A stretch of DNA of 64,000 nt, taken from Dehalococcoidales bacterium. Its GTDB lineage: Bacteria; Chloroflexota; Dehalococcoidia; Dehalococcoidales; RBG-16-60-22. The notes under the pieces were generated by a model. That model was not told where the DNA came from. It saw only the letters and a program-made list of their open reading frames with translations, and searched no databases. The stretch lies in NCBI GenBank assembly GCA_034418415.1, contig DAOULS010000111.1, positions 1,157-65,156 on the forward strand. Direction: 5' to 3'. Positions 3,477 to 58,155 of the stretch are shown here, in pieces. The translations under genes were made by a program, and so were the position numbers. Positions within the stretch are counted from its first letter, which is position 1. Each line of letters begins with the position of its first letter.

Positions 3477-5708
3477 CTACTCTTCTACCTTATAGACCTT
3501 GCACAAGAGCGCCCGGCTGGCCCACCCCCCGGTTAATGGGTCGCAGAACTCGTCGCCATCCGGCGTGAGGACATTGGCGTTGGACTGGAACACGCCGAAG
3601 AGACACGGGTCTTCCCCCGGCTGTTCGGGGAACCACCAGCTTGCCTCGGCGTTGACCACGTCCGGCAGTATGTCCGGGCTTAAGCTGGCTCTCATCTTGA
3701 TACGACCCCGCCTCGTCTCAATCCAGACCCACTCGCCTTCTTTGATTCCCAGCTTCCCGGCCGTCTCGAGGTGGATGGTCAATAGCGGGTCGGGGTGCCT
3801 CTCACGCATGCCCAGGCCGAGCTGCCGGTGCTCGGAATGGAAAAACGGCATAAAACGCCCGCCAGTGTTGAGAATCAGGGGATATTCTTTAGCGACATCC
3901 GGTGTGCTTATCGGCGACTCCGGCGGTTCTTCGTAAAATGGCAGCGGGTCTTGCCCCAGCTTCTCCATCACCGTACTGTAAAGCTCCAGCTTTCCCGATG
4001 CCGTGGCGAACCCATCTTCCTCGTATTTTTTATATTTCCTCGTGCCCAGTATGTAACCTGTTTTGGTAAACTCCTCGTAGGTAATCCCCAGGGGCTTGAG
4101 ACGGTAAGCGATGACCTCCTCCACGGTCTCCCACGGCCAGTCGCTTTTGTCCTGTCCTGTTGCCAGCGCCAGGTCCCGGAAAAATGTGTAGTCGTCTTTC
4201 CTTTCCCCCAAGGGCGTAATCGGCCTCTCCCCGCCCCACACCACGTCGGTAAAGTCCTCCTGCGTGGAGCACATGGGACGCTCCAGCCAGCTTGCCGCCG
4301 GCAGAACGTAGTCCGCCAGTTGCGCCGTGGGCGTCATCCAGTATTCCTGCACCACGCTTAGTTCCAGGTTCGGACTTTTCAGGGCTTCGTAAATACGCCT
4401 GATATTGGGACCCCACATTAACGGATTGGAGCCCCAGGTAATGGCGGCTTTAATGGGGTAGGGTTTGCCGGTCATTATGGCTTCGGATGCCATCGGCACA
4501 AACGCGCCGAGACGGTGCATCGTGGTCTGGTTGACCCCGTGCCTTTGGTGCCAGGGCGTATTGGTCAGCTCGTAGCCCCGCCAGGTCATCAGCGGCGCTT
4601 TCTCCTGCCCCATCTGCAGCTTCTTTATTTCTTTAGGCAGCCTTTCGGTAAGCTCCAGCTGGGCGTCGCGGATGAACATCTTGCCGTCGATTATCGGCCC
4701 CACCGACGGTATCAGGTCGCCGCCCCGTATATCGATGTTGCCGGTGATGGCTCTGACCGCGTTCCTTGCCTGGCTGACCCTGGCGGAGTTGGGCCCCAGC
4801 TGGTCGGTTGCCAGTCCGCGGTAAAGCGTGGCCGGTTTCGTGGTGGCGTAAAGCCTTGCCGATGCTGTTATCTGCTCCGCCGGGACCCCGGTAATTTGGG
4901 CGACCCGCTCGGGGGGATATTCCCTGGCTCTTTCGGCAAGTTTGTCGAATCCGCTCGTCCACTTATCGACGAACTCCTTATCGTACAGGTTTTCATTGAT
5001 GATGACGTTTATCCAGCCCATGAACAGCGCCGTGTCCGTGCCCGGCCTTATCTGGAGGTGGATATCGGCGTCCCGTGCAATCTTGGTGATGACCGGGTCG
5101 ATGACGATGAGCTTCAGGGGCGCCTGCTGCCGTCGTCTCACAATCGATGCCAGCGTACGCTGCGACGACTCGTGGGGCCTCAACCCCGAGAGGACGAGGC
5201 AGCTGGTATGGGCGATATCGGGGGTCGCCATCACGGAATCGCCCATCATCGCCTGTTCTGTGGCGAGGCAGTTGAGCGTGCAGACGACGCCGGGATGAAA
5301 GACATTTTGCGGATTGCCGAAGAGGTTGCAGAAACGGGACCTCGCCCAGATATTCTGACCGCGGTACGTCCCCTCGAAAAAGGCCAGCGACTGCGCCCCG
5401 TATTCGGCTTTGAGTTCGTTGAGCTTGCCGGCTATCTCGCCGATGGCTTGCTCCCAGCCGATTCTCTGCCACTTGCCCTCGCCCCGTTTGCCCTCCCTTT
5501 TCAGGGGGTAATGGAGCTGGTCGGGGTGGTAAAGCCACTTGATGGCGTACTTCAACCTTTCGCAGCTGAAACCACGACTCAGCCGGTGTTCCGGGTTCGG
5601 CTCCACCTTGACGATTTTATTGTCCTTTACGTGTACCAGCACGCCGCAGCTTACGGCGCAGAAGCAGCACCCCGCCTTTTTTATCTCTTCTTCAGCCATA
5701 TCCCCCAC
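3477..5708 (-). CDS. Bis-MGD molybdopterin/tungstopterin oxidoreductase (DMSO reductase family, acetylene hydratase-like clade)
   Basis: N-terminal CxxCxxxC...C [4Fe-4S] motif, YPLKR.GKRGEGKW, IRPGTDTAL, ADYVLPAASWLE, C-terminal WWFPE..NANVLT. The start may be 5699 (MAEEE). Confidence 0.9.
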   Translation of the reverse strand: MGDMAEEEIKKAGCCFCAVSCGVLVHVKDNKIVKVEPNPEHRLSRGFSCERLKYAIKWLYHPDQLHYPLKREGKRGEGKWQRIGWEQAIGEIAGKLNELKAEYGAQSLAFFEGTYRGQNIWARSRFCNLFGNPQNVFHPGVVCTLNCLATEQAMMGDSVMATPDIAHTSCLVLSGLRPHESSQRTLASIVRRRQQAPLKLIVIDPVITKIARDADIHLQIRPGTDTALFMGWINVIINENLYDKEFVDKWTSGFDKLAERAREYPPERVAQITGVPAEQITASARLYATTKPATLYRGLATDQLGPNSARVSQARNAVRAITGNIDIRGGDLIPSVGPIIDGKMFIRDAQLELTERLPKEIKKLQMGQEKAPLMTWRGYELTNTPWHQRHGVNQTTMHRLGAFVPMASEAIMTGKPYPIKAAITWGSNPLMWGPNIRRIYEALKSPNLELSVVQEYWMTPTAQLADYVLPAASWLERPMCSTQEDFTDVVWGGERPITPLGERKDDYTFFRDLALATGQDKSDWPWETVEEVIAYRLKPLGITYEEFTKTGYILGTRKYKKYEEDGFATASGKLELYSTVMEKLGQDPLPFYEEPPESPISTPDVAKEYPLILNTGGRFMPFFHSEHRQLGLGMRERHPDPLLTIHLETAGKLGIKEGEWVWIETRRGRIKMRASLSPDILPDVVNAEASWWFPEQPGEDPCLFGVFQSNANVLTPDGDEFCDPLTGGWASRALLCKVYKVEE

Positions 5709-8101: not shown

Positions 8102-9063
8102 TGAAAGAGACGATGAAGAACAGGCGTGTTCTGGTTACCGGCGGCGCTGGTGTTATCGGCCAGGAACTCTTACAGTTGCTAAGCGATAAACAGGCGGACG
8201 TCCTCTCGGTTGACCGCCGTCCCCTTTCCCGCGGCGAAAAACCCGGTGTGACTCACCTCCTTAAAGACCTGGCGGTAGATAGTCTGGACGAACTGGTTGA
8301 TTTTCAGCCGGAAATTATCTTTCACCTGGCGGCAACCTTCGAGCGCTCCAAGGAGTCCCCCGAATTCTGGAAGGACAACTGGCTGGATAACGTTTTGCTA
8401 AGCCACCGACTCTGCGAGCAGCTGAAAAAAATGCCCGACCTTAAGGTGCTGGTCTTTGCCTCCAGCTATCTGCTTTACTCGACCTCTCTGTATCTCTCAC
8501 CTTCGGTGCCGGGTAAAGTGACGTATCTTAAGGAGACCGACCCCGTTGTGCCCCGCAATCTCTGCGGTGCCGCCAAGCACTATACGGAGGGGGAAATCAG
8601 GTTCGTCAGGGAGGTGGAAAGTCCGTCGTTGCGTACCGTCGATGCCCGTATCTTTCGCGTTTACGGCTGCGGTTCTAAAGACGTGATTTCCCGGTGGGTC
8701 AGGGCGGCTCTTACCGGACAGGAAATCCGGGTGTATCATAAGGAGAACCGCTTCGACTATGTTTTTGCCGGCGATGTCGCTGCTGGACTGCTCAAATTAG
8801 CAGCAAGCCCTGCCGCCGCCGGCGCGGTAAACTTAAGCTGCGGAACGGCGCGCAGGGTTGAGGATGTCTTGAGTATTTTGCAGGAGCTTGTACCCGCCTG
8901 CCGCTCGAAAATAAAGTATATTGATGTAGATGAACTCTATGAAGCCAGTGGCGCCGATATATCCATGTTGAAAAAACTGACCGGTTGGACGCCGCCAACC
9001 GACCTTAAAAAAGGTATCGAGATACTGGTGGATTTTGAAAAAAGCAGGGAAAATAAATCATGA
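8101..9063 (+). CDS. NAD-dependent epimerase/dehydratase (extended SDR)
   Basis: VLVTGGAGVIG, IFHLAA, FASS, RIFRVYG. The catalytic YxxxK appears as LCGAAK. Confidence 0.85.
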   Translation: MKETMKNRRVLVTGGAGVIGQELLQLLSDKQADVLSVDRRPLSRGEKPGVTHLLKDLAVDSLDELVDFQPEIIFHLAATFERSKESPEFWKDNWLDNVLLSHRLCEQLKKMPDLKVLVFASSYLLYSTSLYLSPSVPGKVTYLKETDPVVPRNLCGAAKHYTEGEIRFVREVESPSLRTVDARIFRVYGCGSKDVISRWVRAALTGQEIRVYHKENRFDYVFAGDVAAGLLKLAASPAAAGAVNLSCGTARRVEDVLSILQELVPACRSKIKYIDVDELYEASGADISMLKKLTGWTPPTDLKKGIEILVDFEKSRENKS

Positions 9064-9962
9064 AAATCGGTAAGTATCAGGTGGTGGAGGATACCGATTA
9101 CGGCTACCGGCGTCTCGACCCCCTGCCTGATGATGCGGAGTTGACCAAGTTCTACGAGAGTCAGTATTACGACCTTATCCGTAAGGGCGGGCGGGCGCCG
9201 GAGTTGCGGCGCCTGATGGCTGGCGGCAGGGAAGGCGAGCTTGAGCGTCGCTGGCTGCACGAGACCCTCTATACCGATATCCTCTATGTGCTGGATAAGT
9301 TCGCGCCGGGCAAACGGGTACTGGATGTCGGCTGCGGCGTGGGCGAATTCCTTTCTTTTCTAAAACAGAAAAAGCGCAACGCCGCCGGCATCGAACCGGC
9401 GCAGGAAGCGGCCGCCGCGGCGCAGAAAAAGGGACTGGACGTGCGCGCCGCCACTCTGGAGGAATTTGCCGCCGGGGTCTCGGTCAAGTCCGAGAAGTTC
9501 GGCGCGGTTATTCTCTTAAACGTCCTGGAGCACACGCCCCATCCGGAAAACGTGGTTGAGCTGGTTAAGAAAGTCCTGGAGCCGGATGGCGTAATCTGTG
9601 TCCGCGTGCCCAATGATTTCTCTGAAATCCAGCTGGCGGCGTATGATAAACTGAAAAAAGACCCCTGGTGGATATCCCCGCCCGACCATATAAATTACTT
9701 TAACTTTAAATCGTTAAACGACTTCCTGGAAAAGCTTGGTTTTGAGATTGTCTATGCCCAGGGCGATTATCCCATGGAACTCTTCCTGCTGCAGGGTGAC
9801 GATTATACAGGCAATCCTGAACTGGGCGGCAAGTGTCACCGTAAAAGGGTCGATTTTGAACTGTCCATCCCCGGCGAATTAAGGCGCCGTTTATACCAGG
9901 CGCTGGCGCTGGCCGGCGTGGGTCGCGACTGCCTGACCTTCGGGAGGCTTAAGGGAAAATGA
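9060..9962 (+). CDS. Class I SAM-dependent methyltransferase
   Basis: VLDVGCGVG, LNVLEH, VPND and PPDHINYF motifs, typical of glycan-locus methyltransferases. Confidence 0.85.
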   Translation: MKIGKYQVVEDTDYGYRRLDPLPDDAELTKFYESQYYDLIRKGGRAPELRRLMAGGREGELERRWLHETLYTDILYVLDKFAPGKRVLDVGCGVGEFLSFLKQKKRNAAGIEPAQEAAAAAQKKGLDVRAATLEEFAAGVSVKSEKFGAVILLNVLEHTPHPENVVELVKKVLEPDGVICVRVPNDFSEIQLAAYDKLKKDPWWISPPDHINYFNFKSLNDFLEKLGFEIVYAQGDYPMELFLLQGDDYTGNPELGGKCHRKRVDFELSIPGELRRRLYQALALAGVGRDCLTFGRLKGK

Positions 9963-54808: not shown

Positions 54809-55231
54809 TTATAAATCCACCCAGACCTTGGGCGCGCCGACCGGTGAGGGCGGGCCTTTCATGTCGAGGATGGTTGCCCTGGCGTTCTTCAACTTAAAAA
54901 CGCCCACGTAGTCCCAGCCGTTTTCATCCACCCCCGGTTTGTAGAAGGTACGCTTCTCCGCGACCTCTTCCTTGAACGCCTGGTCCTTTATCTCCTCCAT
55001 CTGCCCGACTACCCTTATCTGAACACCATCGGCAAAGTAACACAGTTCGGTGGCAGGGTTTTTAATCAGCTGCTTGTAAACGTCCTTGGGTGACTGCATG
55101 GCGAAGATGATGCCGTTTTCGTCGGCCCGGTAGGTCCCCATGGCGCGAACGTGCGGCGTATTGCCTTCGGCGGTAGCCATGTAGGCGACGGGGTTTTTGG
55201 TAATGAATGCCAGGATTTCTGTTTTATCCAT
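54809..55231 (-). CDS. Pyridoxamine 5'-phosphate oxidase-like FMN-binding protein, copy 1
   Basis: YMATAEGNTPHVRAM, KQLIKNPATELCY, QIRVVG. Confidence 0.8.
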   Translation of the reverse strand: MDKTEILAFITKNPVAYMATAEGNTPHVRAMGTYRADENGIIFAMQSPKDVYKQLIKNPATELCYFADGVQIRVVGQMEEIKDQAFKEEVAEKRTFYKPGVDENGWDYVGVFKLKNARATILDMKGPPSPVGAPKVWVDL

Positions 55232-55242
55232 GAATCTGCTCC

Positions 55243-55662
55243 TTATGATAAATCGACCGGGGTTATGCCGCCCGTCATGTTCTGCATCGACCAGGTGGAA
55301 GCCTCCACCGGCTTTAGCCTGAAAACAGCCATGTGGTCCAGGCCGAATTTTTCAATGTTAGGTTTTAAGAACGGGTATTTATCCACGATTGCCTGTTTGA
55401 GTGTATTGTCTTTAAGTTCTTCTACCCGGCCGCTGACCCGAAGCTGGGTGCCATCGGCGAAGTAGCAGACCTCCGTCTCTGGGTTGGCAAGCAGCTGTTT
55501 GCAGACGTTCTTGGGATAACTGGTGAAATAGATAATGCCGTTTTCGTCGGCCCGGAAACATCCCATGCCGCGTACGTGCGGCTTGTTGCCGTCCACCGTA
55601 GCCATGTAGCCCATGGGATTTTTGGTGATGAATGCGTACATTTCCGCTTTGTTCATAATCAT
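55243..55662 (-). CDS. Pyridoxamine 5'-phosphate oxidase-like FMN-binding protein, copy 2
   Basis: YMATVDGNKPHVRGM, KQLLANPETEVCY, QLRVSG. Confidence 0.8.
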   Translation of the reverse strand: MIMNKAEMYAFITKNPMGYMATVDGNKPHVRGMGCFRADENGIIYFTSYPKNVCKQLLANPETEVCYFADGTQLRVSGRVEELKDNTLKQAIVDKYPFLKPNIEKFGLDHMAVFRLKPVEASTWSMQNMTGGITPVDLS

Positions 55663-55719: not shown

Positions 55720-56805
55720 TCAGCGGAGTTTGTTGATTACGGCGTCCGCCACCTGTGATGTCCCCACGGCCGCAGGGTCGTCGCGGCGCTCTTTCATGTC
55801 GTAGGTGACGCTCTTGCCCTCTTTGATGACCGCCGCGATGGCGCTTTCCAGTCGGTCCGCCGCCTTATCCTCCCCGATGTGCCGCAGCATCAGCACCCCG
55901 GAGAGCATCATCGCCATGGGGTTGACCTTGTTCTTGCCCCTGTACTTGGGCGCGCTGCCGTGGGTCGGCTCGAAAAGCGCAATATCCTCCCCGATGTTCG
56001 CTCCCGGCGCCAGACCCAGGCCTCCCACCAGCCCCGCACAGAGGTCGGAGATGATATCGCCGTAGAGATTGGGGGCGACGATGACGTCGTACTCCTGCGG
56101 TCTTCTCACCAGCTGCATGCAGAGGTTATCGATGAGGGCTTCCTGGAACTCGATATCCGGGTAGTCTTGAGCCACCTCCCGCGCCACCGAGAGGAAAAGT
56201 CCATCGGAGAACTTCATGATATTGGCTTTCTGCGTCGCCGTCACCTTTTTGCGTCCGTAGCGGCGGGCGTACTCGAAGGCGTATTTCACGATGCGCCGCG
56301 TGCCGTGTTCGGTAATCATCTTGATACTGATAGCGGCATCATCTCCGATGACGTTACCTTGCTTGAGTTTGATGAACTTCGCCAGGAATTTGACTTCCGC
56401 ACTCCCTCTCTCGTATTCAATCCCTGCGTAAAGGTCTTCCGTGTTCTCGCGGACGATGACGATATCAACATTACTGAAGGGGGTCGGCGCGCCGGGATAG
56501 CTCTTGCAGGGACGCAGGCAGGCGTAGAGGTCTAATGCCTTGCGCATGGCGACGTTGACGCTGCGGAAGCCCGTGCCAATGGGGGTGGTCACGGGGCCCT
56601 TGAGCGCCACTTTGTTCTTCTTGATGGACTTGATGACGCGGTCGGGCAGGGGAGTGCCCTCTTTTTCCATGACCTCGGCGCCGGCGTAAGCCAGCTCCCA
56701 GTCGAACCGCACGCCCGTGGCTTCCAGCACGCGTCGCGTTGCTTCGGTGATTTCCGGTCCCACCCCGTCGCCGGGTATTAAGGTGATTTTATGCGGTGAG
56801 TTCAT
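55720..56805 (-). CDS. Isocitrate/isopropylmalate dehydrogenase family enzyme, IDH-type substrate loop
   Basis: LIPGDGVGPE, KGPVTTPIGTGFRSVNV, RENTEDLY, KANIMK, NLYGDI.SDL, FEPTHGSAP. Confidence 0.9.
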   Translation of the reverse strand: MNSPHKITLIPGDGVGPEITEATRRVLEATGVRFDWELAYAGAEVMEKEGTPLPDRVIKSIKKNKVALKGPVTTPIGTGFRSVNVAMRKALDLYACLRPCKSYPGAPTPFSNVDIVIVRENTEDLYAGIEYERGSAEVKFLAKFIKLKQGNVIGDDAAISIKMITEHGTRRIVKYAFEYARRYGRKKVTATQKANIMKFSDGLFLSVAREVAQDYPDIEFQEALIDNLCMQLVRRPQEYDVIVAPNLYGDIISDLCAGLVGGLGLAPGANIGEDIALFEPTHGSAPKYRGKNKVNPMAMMLSGVLMLRHIGEDKAADRLESAIAAVIKEGKSVTYDMKERRDDPAAVGTSQVADAVINKLR

Positions 56806-56870
56806 ATACTCCTAATTATTCGTTTTTTAATCGTTTTTTCAAGATTTTTTCATAGCTAAACAGCTTCAAG

Positions 56871-56974
56871 GGTATTCGTTTTATTCGTTTTTCAATAAAA
56901 TTTTTTTGGTGTCTTAGCTTTGGGTCGTAGCTGATTTGTTTTTATTTGTTTTAGAGTTATGTTTAATCGTTATG
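56871..56974 (+). repeat. Dispersed ~100-bp AT-rich repeat, copy C (partial extra copy at ~56818-56850)
   Basis: Aligns with A (92/101) and with B. Confidence 0.9.
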
Positions 56975-57110
56975 GTAAATTAGGCGCGATATCAGGTAAC
57001 GCTCATGTCCGACCGTGTAAAGTTTAACCTAAATAATGATAACAAACAACTTGTATTTGTCGGTTTGTTAAAAGTGCTGGGTCTATATTCTGATTTCTTA
57101 TTCTAAAATT

Positions 57111-57211
57111 CTGGATTCCCGTTTTCACGGGAATGACGAATAATAATAGCGGGAATGACGACCGGTTAAAGCCTAACAAATACGTCATTCCCGACCTGAT
57201 CGGGAATCCAG
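57111..57211. repeat. Inverted pair of CGTC-type REP-like palindromes plus one half-site
   Basis: ctggattcccgttttcacgggaatgacg (57111-57138), half-site gcgggaatgacgac (57149-57162), opposite-orientation cgtcattcccgacctgatcgggaatccag (57183-57211). Confidence 0.9.
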
Positions 57212-57219
57212 TTTATGCC

Positions 57220-57513
57220 TTAAATAATATCCTCGTATAAATCTTTCCATTCTGGATTACTTTTCTCGATTAACTCGATTTTCCACTTCCTGTTCCATTT
57301 TTTAATTCGTTTTTCTTCGAGAATAGCTGCTTCAATATCTTCAAACTGCTGATAGTAGACTAACATGTGTACATTGTATTTTTTCGTAAAGCCTTCGACG
57401 AGATTGTTCTTATGTTCGTAAACGCGTTTGACAAGGTCAGCAGTAACTCCTGTATAGAGAGTGCCGTTGCGTTTGCTGGCCAGGATATATACATAAGAGT
57501 ACTTTGTTTTGAT
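57220..57513 (-). CDS. Small GIY-YIG nuclease (97 aa, no canonical start; not in the ORF track)
   Basis: Manual translation IKTKYSYVYILASKRNGTLYTGVTADLVKRVYEHKNNLVEGFTKKYNVHMLVYYQQFEDIEAAILEEKRIKKWNRKWKIELIEKSNPEWKDLYEDII*. The first codon is ATC, 6 nt after GAAAGG. Confidence 0.85.
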   Translation of the reverse strand: MKTKYSYVYILASKRNGTLYTGVTADLVKRVYEHKNNLVEGFTKKYNVHMLVYYQQFEDIEAAILEEKRIKKWNRKWKIELIEKSNPEWKDLYEDII

Positions 57514-57524
57514 TTTTAGCCTTT

Positions 57525-57632
57525 CTGGATTCCCGTTTTCACGGGAATGACGACTTGTTGATACTGGATTCCCGTTTTCACGGGAATGACGACTTGTTGA
57601 TACTGGATTCCCGCTTTCGCGGGAATGACGAC
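57525..57632. repeat. Three tandem CGTC-type REP-like palindromes, 39-nt period
   Basis: ctggattcccg(t/c)ttt(tca/cg)cgggaatgacgac starting at 57525, 57564 and 57603, separated by an identical ttgttgata. Confidence 0.92.
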
Positions 57633-57660
57633 TTATTGTTGCAGGAATTGCGGCGAATAA

Positions 57661-58155
57661 CTAGACCTTGATATCCCCGTGTTTCTGGATATAGGGGATT
57701 AAGCCGCCCTCGTTGAGGATTTTGAGCATGACGCCCGGTATCCTGCCGAAGGTCAGCTTGTTGCCGTTGGTCTTGTCTTTCACCGTCCCCGCCGCCAGGT
57801 CCACCTCAAGCTCGTCGCCGTCGTCAATCTTGTCGGTATCACATATCAGGACGGGCAAGCCGAGGTTGATGGCGTTGCGGAAGAAAATCCTCGCCGCGCT
57901 TTTAGCCAGTACGGCGCTGACGCCAGCCATCTTGATTACCAGCGGGGCGTGCTCCCGGCTCGACCCCAGGCCGAAGTTGCTGCCCCCCACCACGAAGTCG
58001 CCGTGTTTGACCTCTCTGGCGAAATTCTTATCGGCGTCCTCCAGAACGTGCTTGGCGAGCTCCGGCAGGTTGCTGCGCAGATGGGCGTACCTCCCCGATA
58101 TGATATGGTCGGTGGAAATGCCGTCGCCGAACTTGTGCGCTTTGCCCTTGAGCAT
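57661..58155 (-). CDS. leuD: Aconitase-family hydro-lyase small subunit (LeuD/HacB-like)
   Basis: ISTDHII, NFGLGSSREHAP, SAARIFFRNAINLGL. Confidence 0.85.
   Translation of the reverse strand: MLKGKAHKFGDGISTDHIISGRYAHLRSNLPELAKHVLEDADKNFAREVKHGDFVVGGSNFGLGSSREHAPLVIKMAGVSAVLAKSAARIFFRNAINLGLPVLICDTDKIDDGDELEVDLAAGTVKDKTNGNKLTFGRIPGVMLKILNEGGLIPYIQKHGDIKV

Follow-up and report, generated by a model that had tools for sequence, protein, structure and literature searches.

The 64-kb window analyzed here (contig DAOULS010000111.1 of assembly GCA_034418415.1), from a Dehalococcoidales bacterium, carries on its minus strand, at positions 57220-57513, a small gene of 97 codons followed by TAA, with an inferred ATC start, that encodes a single-domain GIY-YIG nuclease. 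We refer to this gene as ssn, after the Ssn nuclease family to which we assign its product, and to the hairpin repeats on both of its sides as NTS, for Neisseria Transformation Sequence. The Ssn/NTS system was described in March 2025 (Chenal et al., 2025, Nat Commun 16:2388, PMC11893778). An initial annotation of the window, made from the sequence, had pointed to an unannotated 97-codon GIY-YIG gene with three 39-nt units upstream and further repeats downstream. ORF (open reading frame), Pfam and repeat scans bore out the gene and its upstream units, and the downstream repeats were recovered as one inverted NTS, one half-site and another copy in direct orientation.

The predicted protein (97 amino acids) reads IKTKYSYVYILASKRNGTLYTGVT...EEKRIKKWNRKWK...DLYEDII, and the minus-strand ORF (57513-57220) runs from IKTKYSYVYILASKRNGTLYTGVTADLVKRVYEHKNN to EEKRIKKWNRKWKIELIEKSNPEWKDLYEDII, 97 codons and then TAA. 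The Pfam GIY-YIG model (PF01541) matched residues 7-80 (E 5e-15), and no second domain was matched. An AlphaFold2 (AF2) model of the protein consisted of one compact domain with the GIY-YIG fold (pLDDT 83). In a family alignment of 17 sequences, Y9, Y20, H34 and E67 of the window protein were invariant and R30 was nearly so. By tblastn, no additional ssn gene was found in the window. Sequence and structure comparison identified UPF0213 BH0048 and the Slx1 nuclease domain as the closest solved folds; no structure of the Ssn family was found in the PDB, and none of the NCBIfam models scanned represents this family. The UPF0213/YhbQ fold was matched through two solved proteins (1zg2, E 6e-5 by sequence and E 2e-4 by Foldseek; 1ywl, E 1.7e-3), and the GIY-YIG domain of Slx1, a structure-selective nuclease, was matched with a TM-score of approximately 0.6. 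The UPF0213/YhbQ and Slx1 proteins differ, however, in showing 20-29% identity and no linked NTS repeats, and Slx1 in addition requires Slx4 and carries a RING domain. Judging from these matches, the window protein is related to UPF0213 at the superfamily level.

The published NTS, CGTCATTCCCGCGMAVGCGGGAATCYRG, includes the dRS3 repeat, and NTS-like motifs are termed SRM (PMC11893778). Upstream of ssn, on the strand of the gene, we found three head-to-tail 39-nt units, each composed of a 28-nt NTS and an 11-nt spacer. The outermost repeat, NTS_a (57603-57630; CGTCATTCCCGCGAAAGCGGGAATCCAG), is an exact fit to the published NTS consensus. It is followed by NTS_b (57564-57591; CGTCATTCCCGTGAAAACGGGAATCCAG) and by NTS_c (57525-57552), the repeat nearest the gene and the left end of the canonical unit; both match the SRM regular expression (regex), and their 39-nt units are identical. 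Downstream of the gene lie NTS_inv (57183-57211, plus strand; CGTCATTCCCGACCTGATCGGGAATCCAG), which is the inverted right-end repeat and has a longer loop with a 9-nt spacer between ATTCCC and GGGAAT, a truncated NTS comprising the 5' half only (57149-57160, minus strand; CGTCATTCCCGC), and NTS_d (57111-57138, minus strand), an extra direct copy that again matches the SRM regex. NTS_b, NTS_c and NTS_d are the same 28-mer. Between NTS_a and these three, one stem pair changes from C:G to T:A on both sides (GCG/CGC to GTG/CAC), and pairing is therefore preserved. As DNA, the repeats fold into 8-bp hairpins of -7.6 to -9.0 kcal/mol (-9.0 for NTS_a, -7.8 for NTS_b).

Across the 64-kb window, GTCATTCCC-N8-GGGAATCC was matched four times versus 0.02 expected and GGGAATGACG six times versus 0.10 expected, with all of these matches falling at the ssn locus. 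The published NTS regex gave one match (57603-57630) and the SRM regex four, likewise all at the locus and on the strand of the gene, and every repeat copy lies within 130 bp of the ssn ORF. Between the end of the NTS_c core and the catalytic-Tyr codon there are 40 nt (family median for the upstream core, 38 nt), and NTS_inv begins 8 nt past the ssn stop codon (family mode for the inverted copy 4-9 nt, median 13 nt). The longer-loop subtype of NTS_inv is kept in L088 and L089, the two of our three closest, syntenic homologues whose DNA was compared. Local turnover of the repeats is evident from the additional tandem and direct NTS copies. A 944-bp Logan contig (SRR14802572; L002) has a leuD gene, the upstream neighbour of ssn, identical to that of the window and stops in the first NTS copy; the NTS array appears to break assemblies.

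The Ssn proteins were reported as the first family of site-specific endonucleases that act on single-stranded DNA (ssDNA) only (PMC11893778). The 94-amino-acid SsnA, a member of CDD's cd10448 family, named GIY-YIG_unchar_3, binds the NTS solely as ssDNA and on one strand only, and cuts a few nucleotides 5'; Y6A, Y17A and E64A substitutions each abolish cutting (PMC11893778). The characterized Ssn enzymes come from Neisseria and Wolbachia and have zero activity on double-stranded DNA (dsDNA), hairpin-adjacent cutting having been demonstrated biochemically for four homologues (PMC11893778). In N. meningitidis, SsnA reduces transformation by NTS-bearing DNA, and across bacteria SRM flank ssnA homologues, with at least one motif in 71% and motifs on both sides in 42% (PMC11893778). 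The pairing of a nuclease with a palindrome, with cutting near the hairpin, which the initial annotation had put forward as an idea, has thus been established biochemically, and the link that it drew to the dRS3 core holds, given that the NTS contains dRS3. Its view of the system as uncharacterized is outdated by the same publication.

The window protein matched the N. gonorrhoeae chromosome by tblastn with E 2e-22 and 60% identity, the published homology criterion for the SsnA family being E < 1e-10 (PMC11893778). In a pairwise comparison with gonococcal SsnA, 54 of 90 residues were identical in an ungapped alignment (E 5e-43), and Y9, Y20 and E67 of the window protein aligned with Y6, Y17 and E64. 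Furthermore, NTS_a is identical at 28/28 positions to the NTS that adjoins ssnA of N. gonorrhoeae (L170:1360-1387, where L170 is NZ_CP119142.1:1880219-1883488). PLSDB files two complete N. gonorrhoeae chromosomes (2.17 Mb) as plasmids, i.e., NZ_CP119142.1 and NZ_CP119140.1. The locus thus resembles the Neisseria system in having a single-domain nuclease of approximately 95 amino acids, flanking NTS that include the exact 28-nt consensus, and an NTS-ssn-NTS layout in which the downstream copy is inverted. It differs in its host, which is a Dehalococcoidales (Chloroflexota) metagenome-assembled genome (MAG), and in the position of the cassette inside a biosynthetic operon, with a triple 39-nt tandem array and an ATC start. 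Moreover, pathogenic Neisseria have hundreds of dispersed copies of the repeat, whereas those of the window are confined to the flanks of the gene. The Neisseria dRS3 arrays, or neisserial intergenic mosaic elements (NIME), share with the locus an ATTCCC-N8-GGGAAT core and clustered, gene-adjacent arrays; dRS3, however, was defined as a 20-bp repeat and phage integration target, whereas the functional Ssn site is the oriented 28-nt NTS. Taken together, all defining features of the system that are open to sequence tests are present, with cleavage of NTS ssDNA itself being assigned by homology, and it is very probable that the locus is an Ssn/NTS member in which a GIY-YIG gene is bracketed by its cognate NTS hairpins.

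As such a member, the window protein would bind the NTS only in ssDNA and only on the CGTCATTCCC...GGGAATCCAG strand, and would then hydrolyse the DNA backbone at a point a few nucleotides 5' to the hairpin. The repeats of the canonical unit, NTS_c - ssn - NTS_inv, are in inverted orientation, and each strand therefore bears, at the cassette's 5' edge, an NTS that can be cut. The likely role of the protein would be to cut NTS-bearing ssDNA, e.g., incoming, replicating or recombining DNA, and this cleavage would influence recombination at and around the cassette.

Several points weigh against the locus being a working counterpart of the Neisseria system. Motif and published-regex scans found no NTS or SRM copies outside the ssn locus within the 64-kb window, and the genome-wide, transformation-modulating role proposed for Neisseria may not hold here because the repeats are undispersed over this distance. 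In addition, the ssn ORF has no in-frame ATG, GTG or TTG 5' of Met50 (ATG at 57366), and translation from the ATC codon would probably take place at a low level.

The ATC at 57513 is the sole plausible start of ssn and occupies the position where most relatives show ATG. A Shine-Dalgarno-like GAAAGG, read from the sequence, lies 6 nt 5' of it (57520-57525, minus strand), and GAAAGG or GGAAGG is kept at the equivalent spot in L088 and L089. The start codons of the three syntenic copies are ATC, ATT and ATT, each behind GAAAGG/GGAAGG, and in L089 an in-frame TAG stands immediately 5' of the ATT. The N. gonorrhoeae ssnA ORF likewise lacks any in-frame ATG; when it is read from an ATT codon, the published length of 94 amino acids and the published numbering are recovered. 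Of 161 scorable homologue loci, 129 have an ATG start, 23 GTG/TTG only and 9 no canonical start nearby, and a non-ATG start is a minority trait in the Ssn family. The weak ATC start of the window gene probably works. An ORF that lacks a canonical start 5' of Met50, and that went uncalled in assembly GCA_964609685.1, could be regarded as a decaying pseudogene, i.e., the inert remnant of an old insertion. Its 97-codon frame is intact, however, with all catalytic residues present, and comparison with L088 and L089 yielded pN (nonsynonymous) values of 0.05-0.10 versus pS (synonymous) values of 0.70-0.78, corresponding to a pN/pS of approximately 0.07-0.13. These values indicate strong purifying selection, and for this reason the window copy is apparently functional. 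The retention of ATC/ATT behind the Shine-Dalgarno-like motif in three copies, the TAG directly before the ATT of L089, and the agreement of the gonococcal orthologue of N. meningitidis SsnA with the paper's numbering when read from ATT likewise speak against a relic, which we consider very unlikely.

On the contig CAZSRM010000001.1 (GCA_964609685.1), which contains the window, zero genes are called between leuD and the dehydrogenase gene; ssn was left unannotated because of its weak non-ATG start. Many called ssn homologues, on the other hand, bear N- or C-terminal extensions that are translated repeats, with peptides such as VIPAKAGIQ, SFPRKRESR, RHSRENGNP and GFPIKLGMTG; repeat-extended database proteins of this kind include P0009, P0019, P0021, P0061, P0069, P0087, P0096, P0106 and P0108. 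The window locus illustrates why ssn genes are missed or mis-called, through either non-ATG starts or spurious repeat-encoded termini. It was also observed that the leuD TAG stop (57661-57663) shares the frame of ssn, with no stop codon in the 150 nt between them, which include the three NTS units of 39 nt, or 13 codons, apiece. Read-through of this TAG would yield a LeuD-Ssn fusion. The shared frame is probably due to chance, given the TAG that directly precedes the ATT start in L089.

With regard to expression, ssn would most likely be transcribed by read-through from the surrounding operon, because no room for a promoter is evident. Among ssn homologues, 79-80% are co-oriented with neighbour genes, a figure that stands without a proper baseline and is suggestive of read-through expression.

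The Ssn family is very large, with more than 8000 proteins above the search threshold. The top protein matches were from Dehalococcoidales and Chloroflexi, with approximately 75% identity being reached in Patescibacteria. We surveyed 160 homologue loci, comprising 80 metagenome loci and 80 loci from species-representative genomes, the latter spanning at least 15 phyla and encoding proteins 57-76% identical to the window protein. An SRM was present within 300 bp of the gene at 57/80 metagenome loci (on both sides in 25) and at 56/80 genome loci (on both sides in 29). SRM density near the gene was 2.10/kb versus 0.108/kb in the outer flanks of the metagenome loci, and 2.28/kb versus 0.079/kb in those of the genome loci. 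The published motif thus occurs within 300 bp in 70-71% of the 160 loci, an enrichment of 19- to 29-fold over the outer flanks, in keeping with the nuclease-repeat linkage that the initial annotation had proposed. The 8-mer GTCATTCC was found within 300 bp in 139/160 loci. Upstream repeats were mostly on the strand of the gene and downstream repeats mostly inverted. Some ssn genes are surrounded by tandem arrays of NTS units that range in length from hundreds of bp to over 1 kb and resemble NIME or bacterial interspersed mosaic elements (BIME), as at L108:4714-6073, L109:4348-6029, and L095 at approximately 4600-5700 and 8560-9400 (Thermodesulfobacteriota and Anaerolineae MAGs). The gene had 0 matches in GenBank phages, and was found on 19 of 2.9 million viral contigs and in 31 plasmid records, mostly megaplasmids or chromids.

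This survey also bears on whether the hairpins act mainly as regulators of the operon, i.e., as terminators, attenuators or mRNA stabilizers, with the nuclease gene being incidental. Their location in an operon spacer and the compensatory stem change that keeps pairing would suit such a function. Nevertheless, no hairpin is followed by a T-tract, a terminator scan found no terminator-like site, and there was no Rfam match above threshold. In relatives the operon lacks the repeats, and the repeat accompanies ssn across phyla whatever the neighbouring genes. A mainly regulatory role is therefore highly improbable.

In the window, the operon includes a LeuC/LeuD-type dehydratase pair and a dehydrogenase, co-directional with ssn. 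The upstream neighbour of ssn encodes the LeuD-type dehydratase small subunit (57661-58155, minus strand; TAG stop) and the downstream neighbour a dehydrogenase of the isocitrate/isopropylmalate family (Iso_dh; icd; 55720-56805, minus strand). Dehalococcoidales relatives share the gene order carboxyltransferase, leuC, leuD, dehydrogenase, PNPOx, HIT, and their LeuD is 90-91% identical to that of the window. The leuD-dehydrogenase spacer measures 855 bp in the window versus 278, 246, 243 and 106 bp in relatives. By alignment, both ends of the spacer are homologous to those of L004 (GCA_016930185.1) and L006 (GCA_016926705.1), and both of these genomes skip 57091-57641. Compared with the leuD-icd spacer of close relatives, the Ssn/NTS cassette (57091-57641, minus strand) is thus an indel of 551 bp (±1), and the empty site that had been anticipated in relatives does exist, in L004 and L006. 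An AT-rich block of approximately 850 bp, as initially described, corresponds to the 855-bp spacer, but only 551 bp of it make up the cassette, and 285 bp are native.

This native part (56806-57090, minus strand), the AT-rich leader of icd, lies outside the cassette and aligns with L004 and L006, the counterparts being L004:3524-3773 and L006:3514-3741. Its GC content is approximately 0.29-0.34 amid a region of approximately 0.6, and long blocks of it are conserved among relatives. The leader contains a promoter-like site (56842-56815) that agrees at 10/12 positions; Rfam gave no match to it, and a consensus fold yielded no convincing structure. No convincing target-site duplication was seen at the junctions of the window cassette. 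The terminal letters are AATTCCTG for the left flank and GAAATCAG for the element, and each agrees with the NTS 3' end, GAATCCAG, at 6/10 positions, a similarity that is not significant. At the empty junctions of L004 and L006, 10-11/28 positions match an NTS by eye, from which we make no claim of a relic NTS. Elsewhere in the operon, the window has tandem PNPOx-like paralogues (54809-55231 and 55243-55662; 140 and 139 amino acids) downstream of the dehydrogenase gene, and a single PNPOx-like gene is present in L005, L006 and L007. A DUF559/MTES_1575 gene (Vsr-like endonuclease fold) lies between PNPOx and HIT at L007:5396-5785, and is another small nuclease gene with presence/absence variation in the same operon.

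A free-standing, small GIY-YIG gene that is polymorphic for presence or absence brings to mind a classical homing endonuclease, which would cut the empty dsDNA allele so that repair copies the cassette in, and the window protein does have a weak similarity to TIGR01453 (group I intron endonuclease; E 7e-4). This similarity is restricted to residues 6-40, however, and its 19.6 bits compare with a cut-off of 56. GIY-YIG homing endonucleases such as I-TevI and the Seg proteins have a linker and a C-terminal DNA-binding domain and are active on dsDNA, whereas the window protein comprises 97 amino acids in total and has no DNA-binding domain. Given also that the characterized family members are inactive on dsDNA (PMC11893778), that there is no intron or intein context, and that the gene is absent from phage records, homing is extremely unlikely.

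All three of the closest Ssn homologues that were examined, at 84-88% identity, are located directly downstream of leuD, on other Dehalococcoidales contigs. In these homologues, Ssn has diverged about as far as LeuD, and synonymous sites are saturated. The syntenic position and the saturated synonymous divergence argue for long residence over recent hopping. LeuD identity to the window is 90-91% for the empty-site genomes versus 85-87% for the other filled genomes, the corresponding values for ICD being 86-89% versus 74-82%, and the empty-site genomes are the nearer ones by LeuC as well. Given that genomes with an empty site are closer to the window than those with a filled one, this one site must have gained the cassette two or more times or cleanly lost it two or more times. 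In L088, the left side of the cassette (L088:2788-3115) is more complex, with several diverged NTS variants that include one with a 40-nt loop and one inverted copy, and a SnoaL_4 gene is inserted between ssn and the dehydrogenase gene.

In two other genomes, within-genome paralogues are homologous solely across NTS-ssn-NTS. The Bdellovibrionales MAG L159 has two ssn copies 2.5 kb apart that are 85% identical over exactly 403 bp, from 8 nt before the left NTS to 11 nt after the inverted right NTS, and no target-site duplication was found at these copies. In another MAG (L114/L134), the homology between two ssn copies covers 363 bp and is delimited by the NTS ends. At the site of the window cassette itself, the 106-bp leuD-dehydrogenase spacer of L007 (L007:3496-3601) is nearly all taken up by an inverted SRM-like pair, GTCATTGCGAG...GGCAATCTC, i.e., a doublet of a different hairpin repeat, REPIN-like and with no gene between. 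These paralogues, doublet and arrays fit a discrete, NTS-bounded element combined with local repeat turnover. Movement or repeat amplification catalyzed by Ssn is a hypothesis that these data do not show.

Such a hypothesis would make the locus a selfish system resembling that of the RAYTs (REP-associated tyrosine transposases, where REP denotes repetitive extragenic palindromes), with the GIY-YIG nuclease itself mobilizing NTS-ssn-NTS and amplifying solo NTS or doublets. The 2025 authors voiced the same idea: they remarked on the IS-like (insertion sequence-like) layout of NTS-ssnA-NTS and its analogy with IS200/IS605 and REP/BIME, and offered domestication of the unit purely as a hypothesis (PMC11893778). 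Our literature searches found no follow-up on Ssn mobility after that paper, and nothing relevant that links GIY-YIG with repetitive extragenic palindromes or REPIN.

As in the RAYT/REP systems (REPtron, REPIN), the nuclease gene lies between inverted palindromes that are recognized as ssDNA hairpins, and gene-less repeat doublets exist, as in L007. The NTS-bounded limits of paralogue homology (a stretch of 403 bp for L159, of 363 bp for L114/L134), the presence/absence polymorphism at an orthologous leuD-icd site, the gene-less doublet at this same site, the identical 28-mers of NTS_b, NTS_c and NTS_d with tandem duplication of the 39-nt unit, the large arrays beside ssn in L108, L109 and L095, and the spread of proteins 57-76% identical over at least 15 phyla all favour mobility driven by the nuclease. 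The chemistry, however, is different. By Pfam, sequence and fold, Ssn is a hydrolytic GIY-YIG enzyme, whereas a RAYT is an HUH Y1 transposase; GIY-YIG enzymes are hydrolytic and act without a covalent HUH-tyrosine intermediate, and strand transfer by Ssn alone is therefore not expected. With respect to its chemistry, the protein is no counterpart of a RAYT. In addition, no target-site duplication was found at the window junctions or the L159 copies, there is no NTS elsewhere in the 64 kb and hence no sign of repeat dispersal there, few viral contigs carry the cassette, GenBank phages have none, and it occurs in only 31 plasmid records. The synteny of the closest homologues examined, with their saturated synonymous sites and LeuD-like divergence, fits vertical residence. 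On balance, we regard mobilization by the nuclease itself as possible and rather doubtful. The comparison with IS200/IS605 (TnpA, peel-and-paste) leads to a similar picture: both are tiny elements with subterminal hairpins, strand-specific recognition of ssDNA and cleavage a few nucleotides off the hairpin foot, but the Ssn cassette is without HUH/Tyr chemistry or a conserved target tetranucleotide, and a search for a target-site duplication or a defined insertion-site rule revealed neither.

As an Ssn/NTS member, the locus opens no new category, since the pairing of the nuclease with its hairpins had already been published. Its added value lies in an unannotated, apparently functional Dehalococcoidales member whose repeats are limited to the flanks of the gene, and in the clean contrast of filled and empty alleles that an orthologous site of the operon provides. 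The filled/empty site, together with the NTS-bounded paralogues elsewhere, bears on whether NTS-ssn-NTS is, or was, a mobile element. We put forward only tentatively that NTS-ssn-NTS might constitute an autonomous, IS-like mobile unit of approximately 360-400 bp. If this were true, copying or excision of the unit would rely on the hairpin-guided, hydrolytic action of an ssDNA nuclease and on replication or repair by the host, NTS doublets and arrays that lack the gene would be non-autonomous forms derived from it, and the leuD-icd polymorphism would represent the gain or precise loss of such an element.

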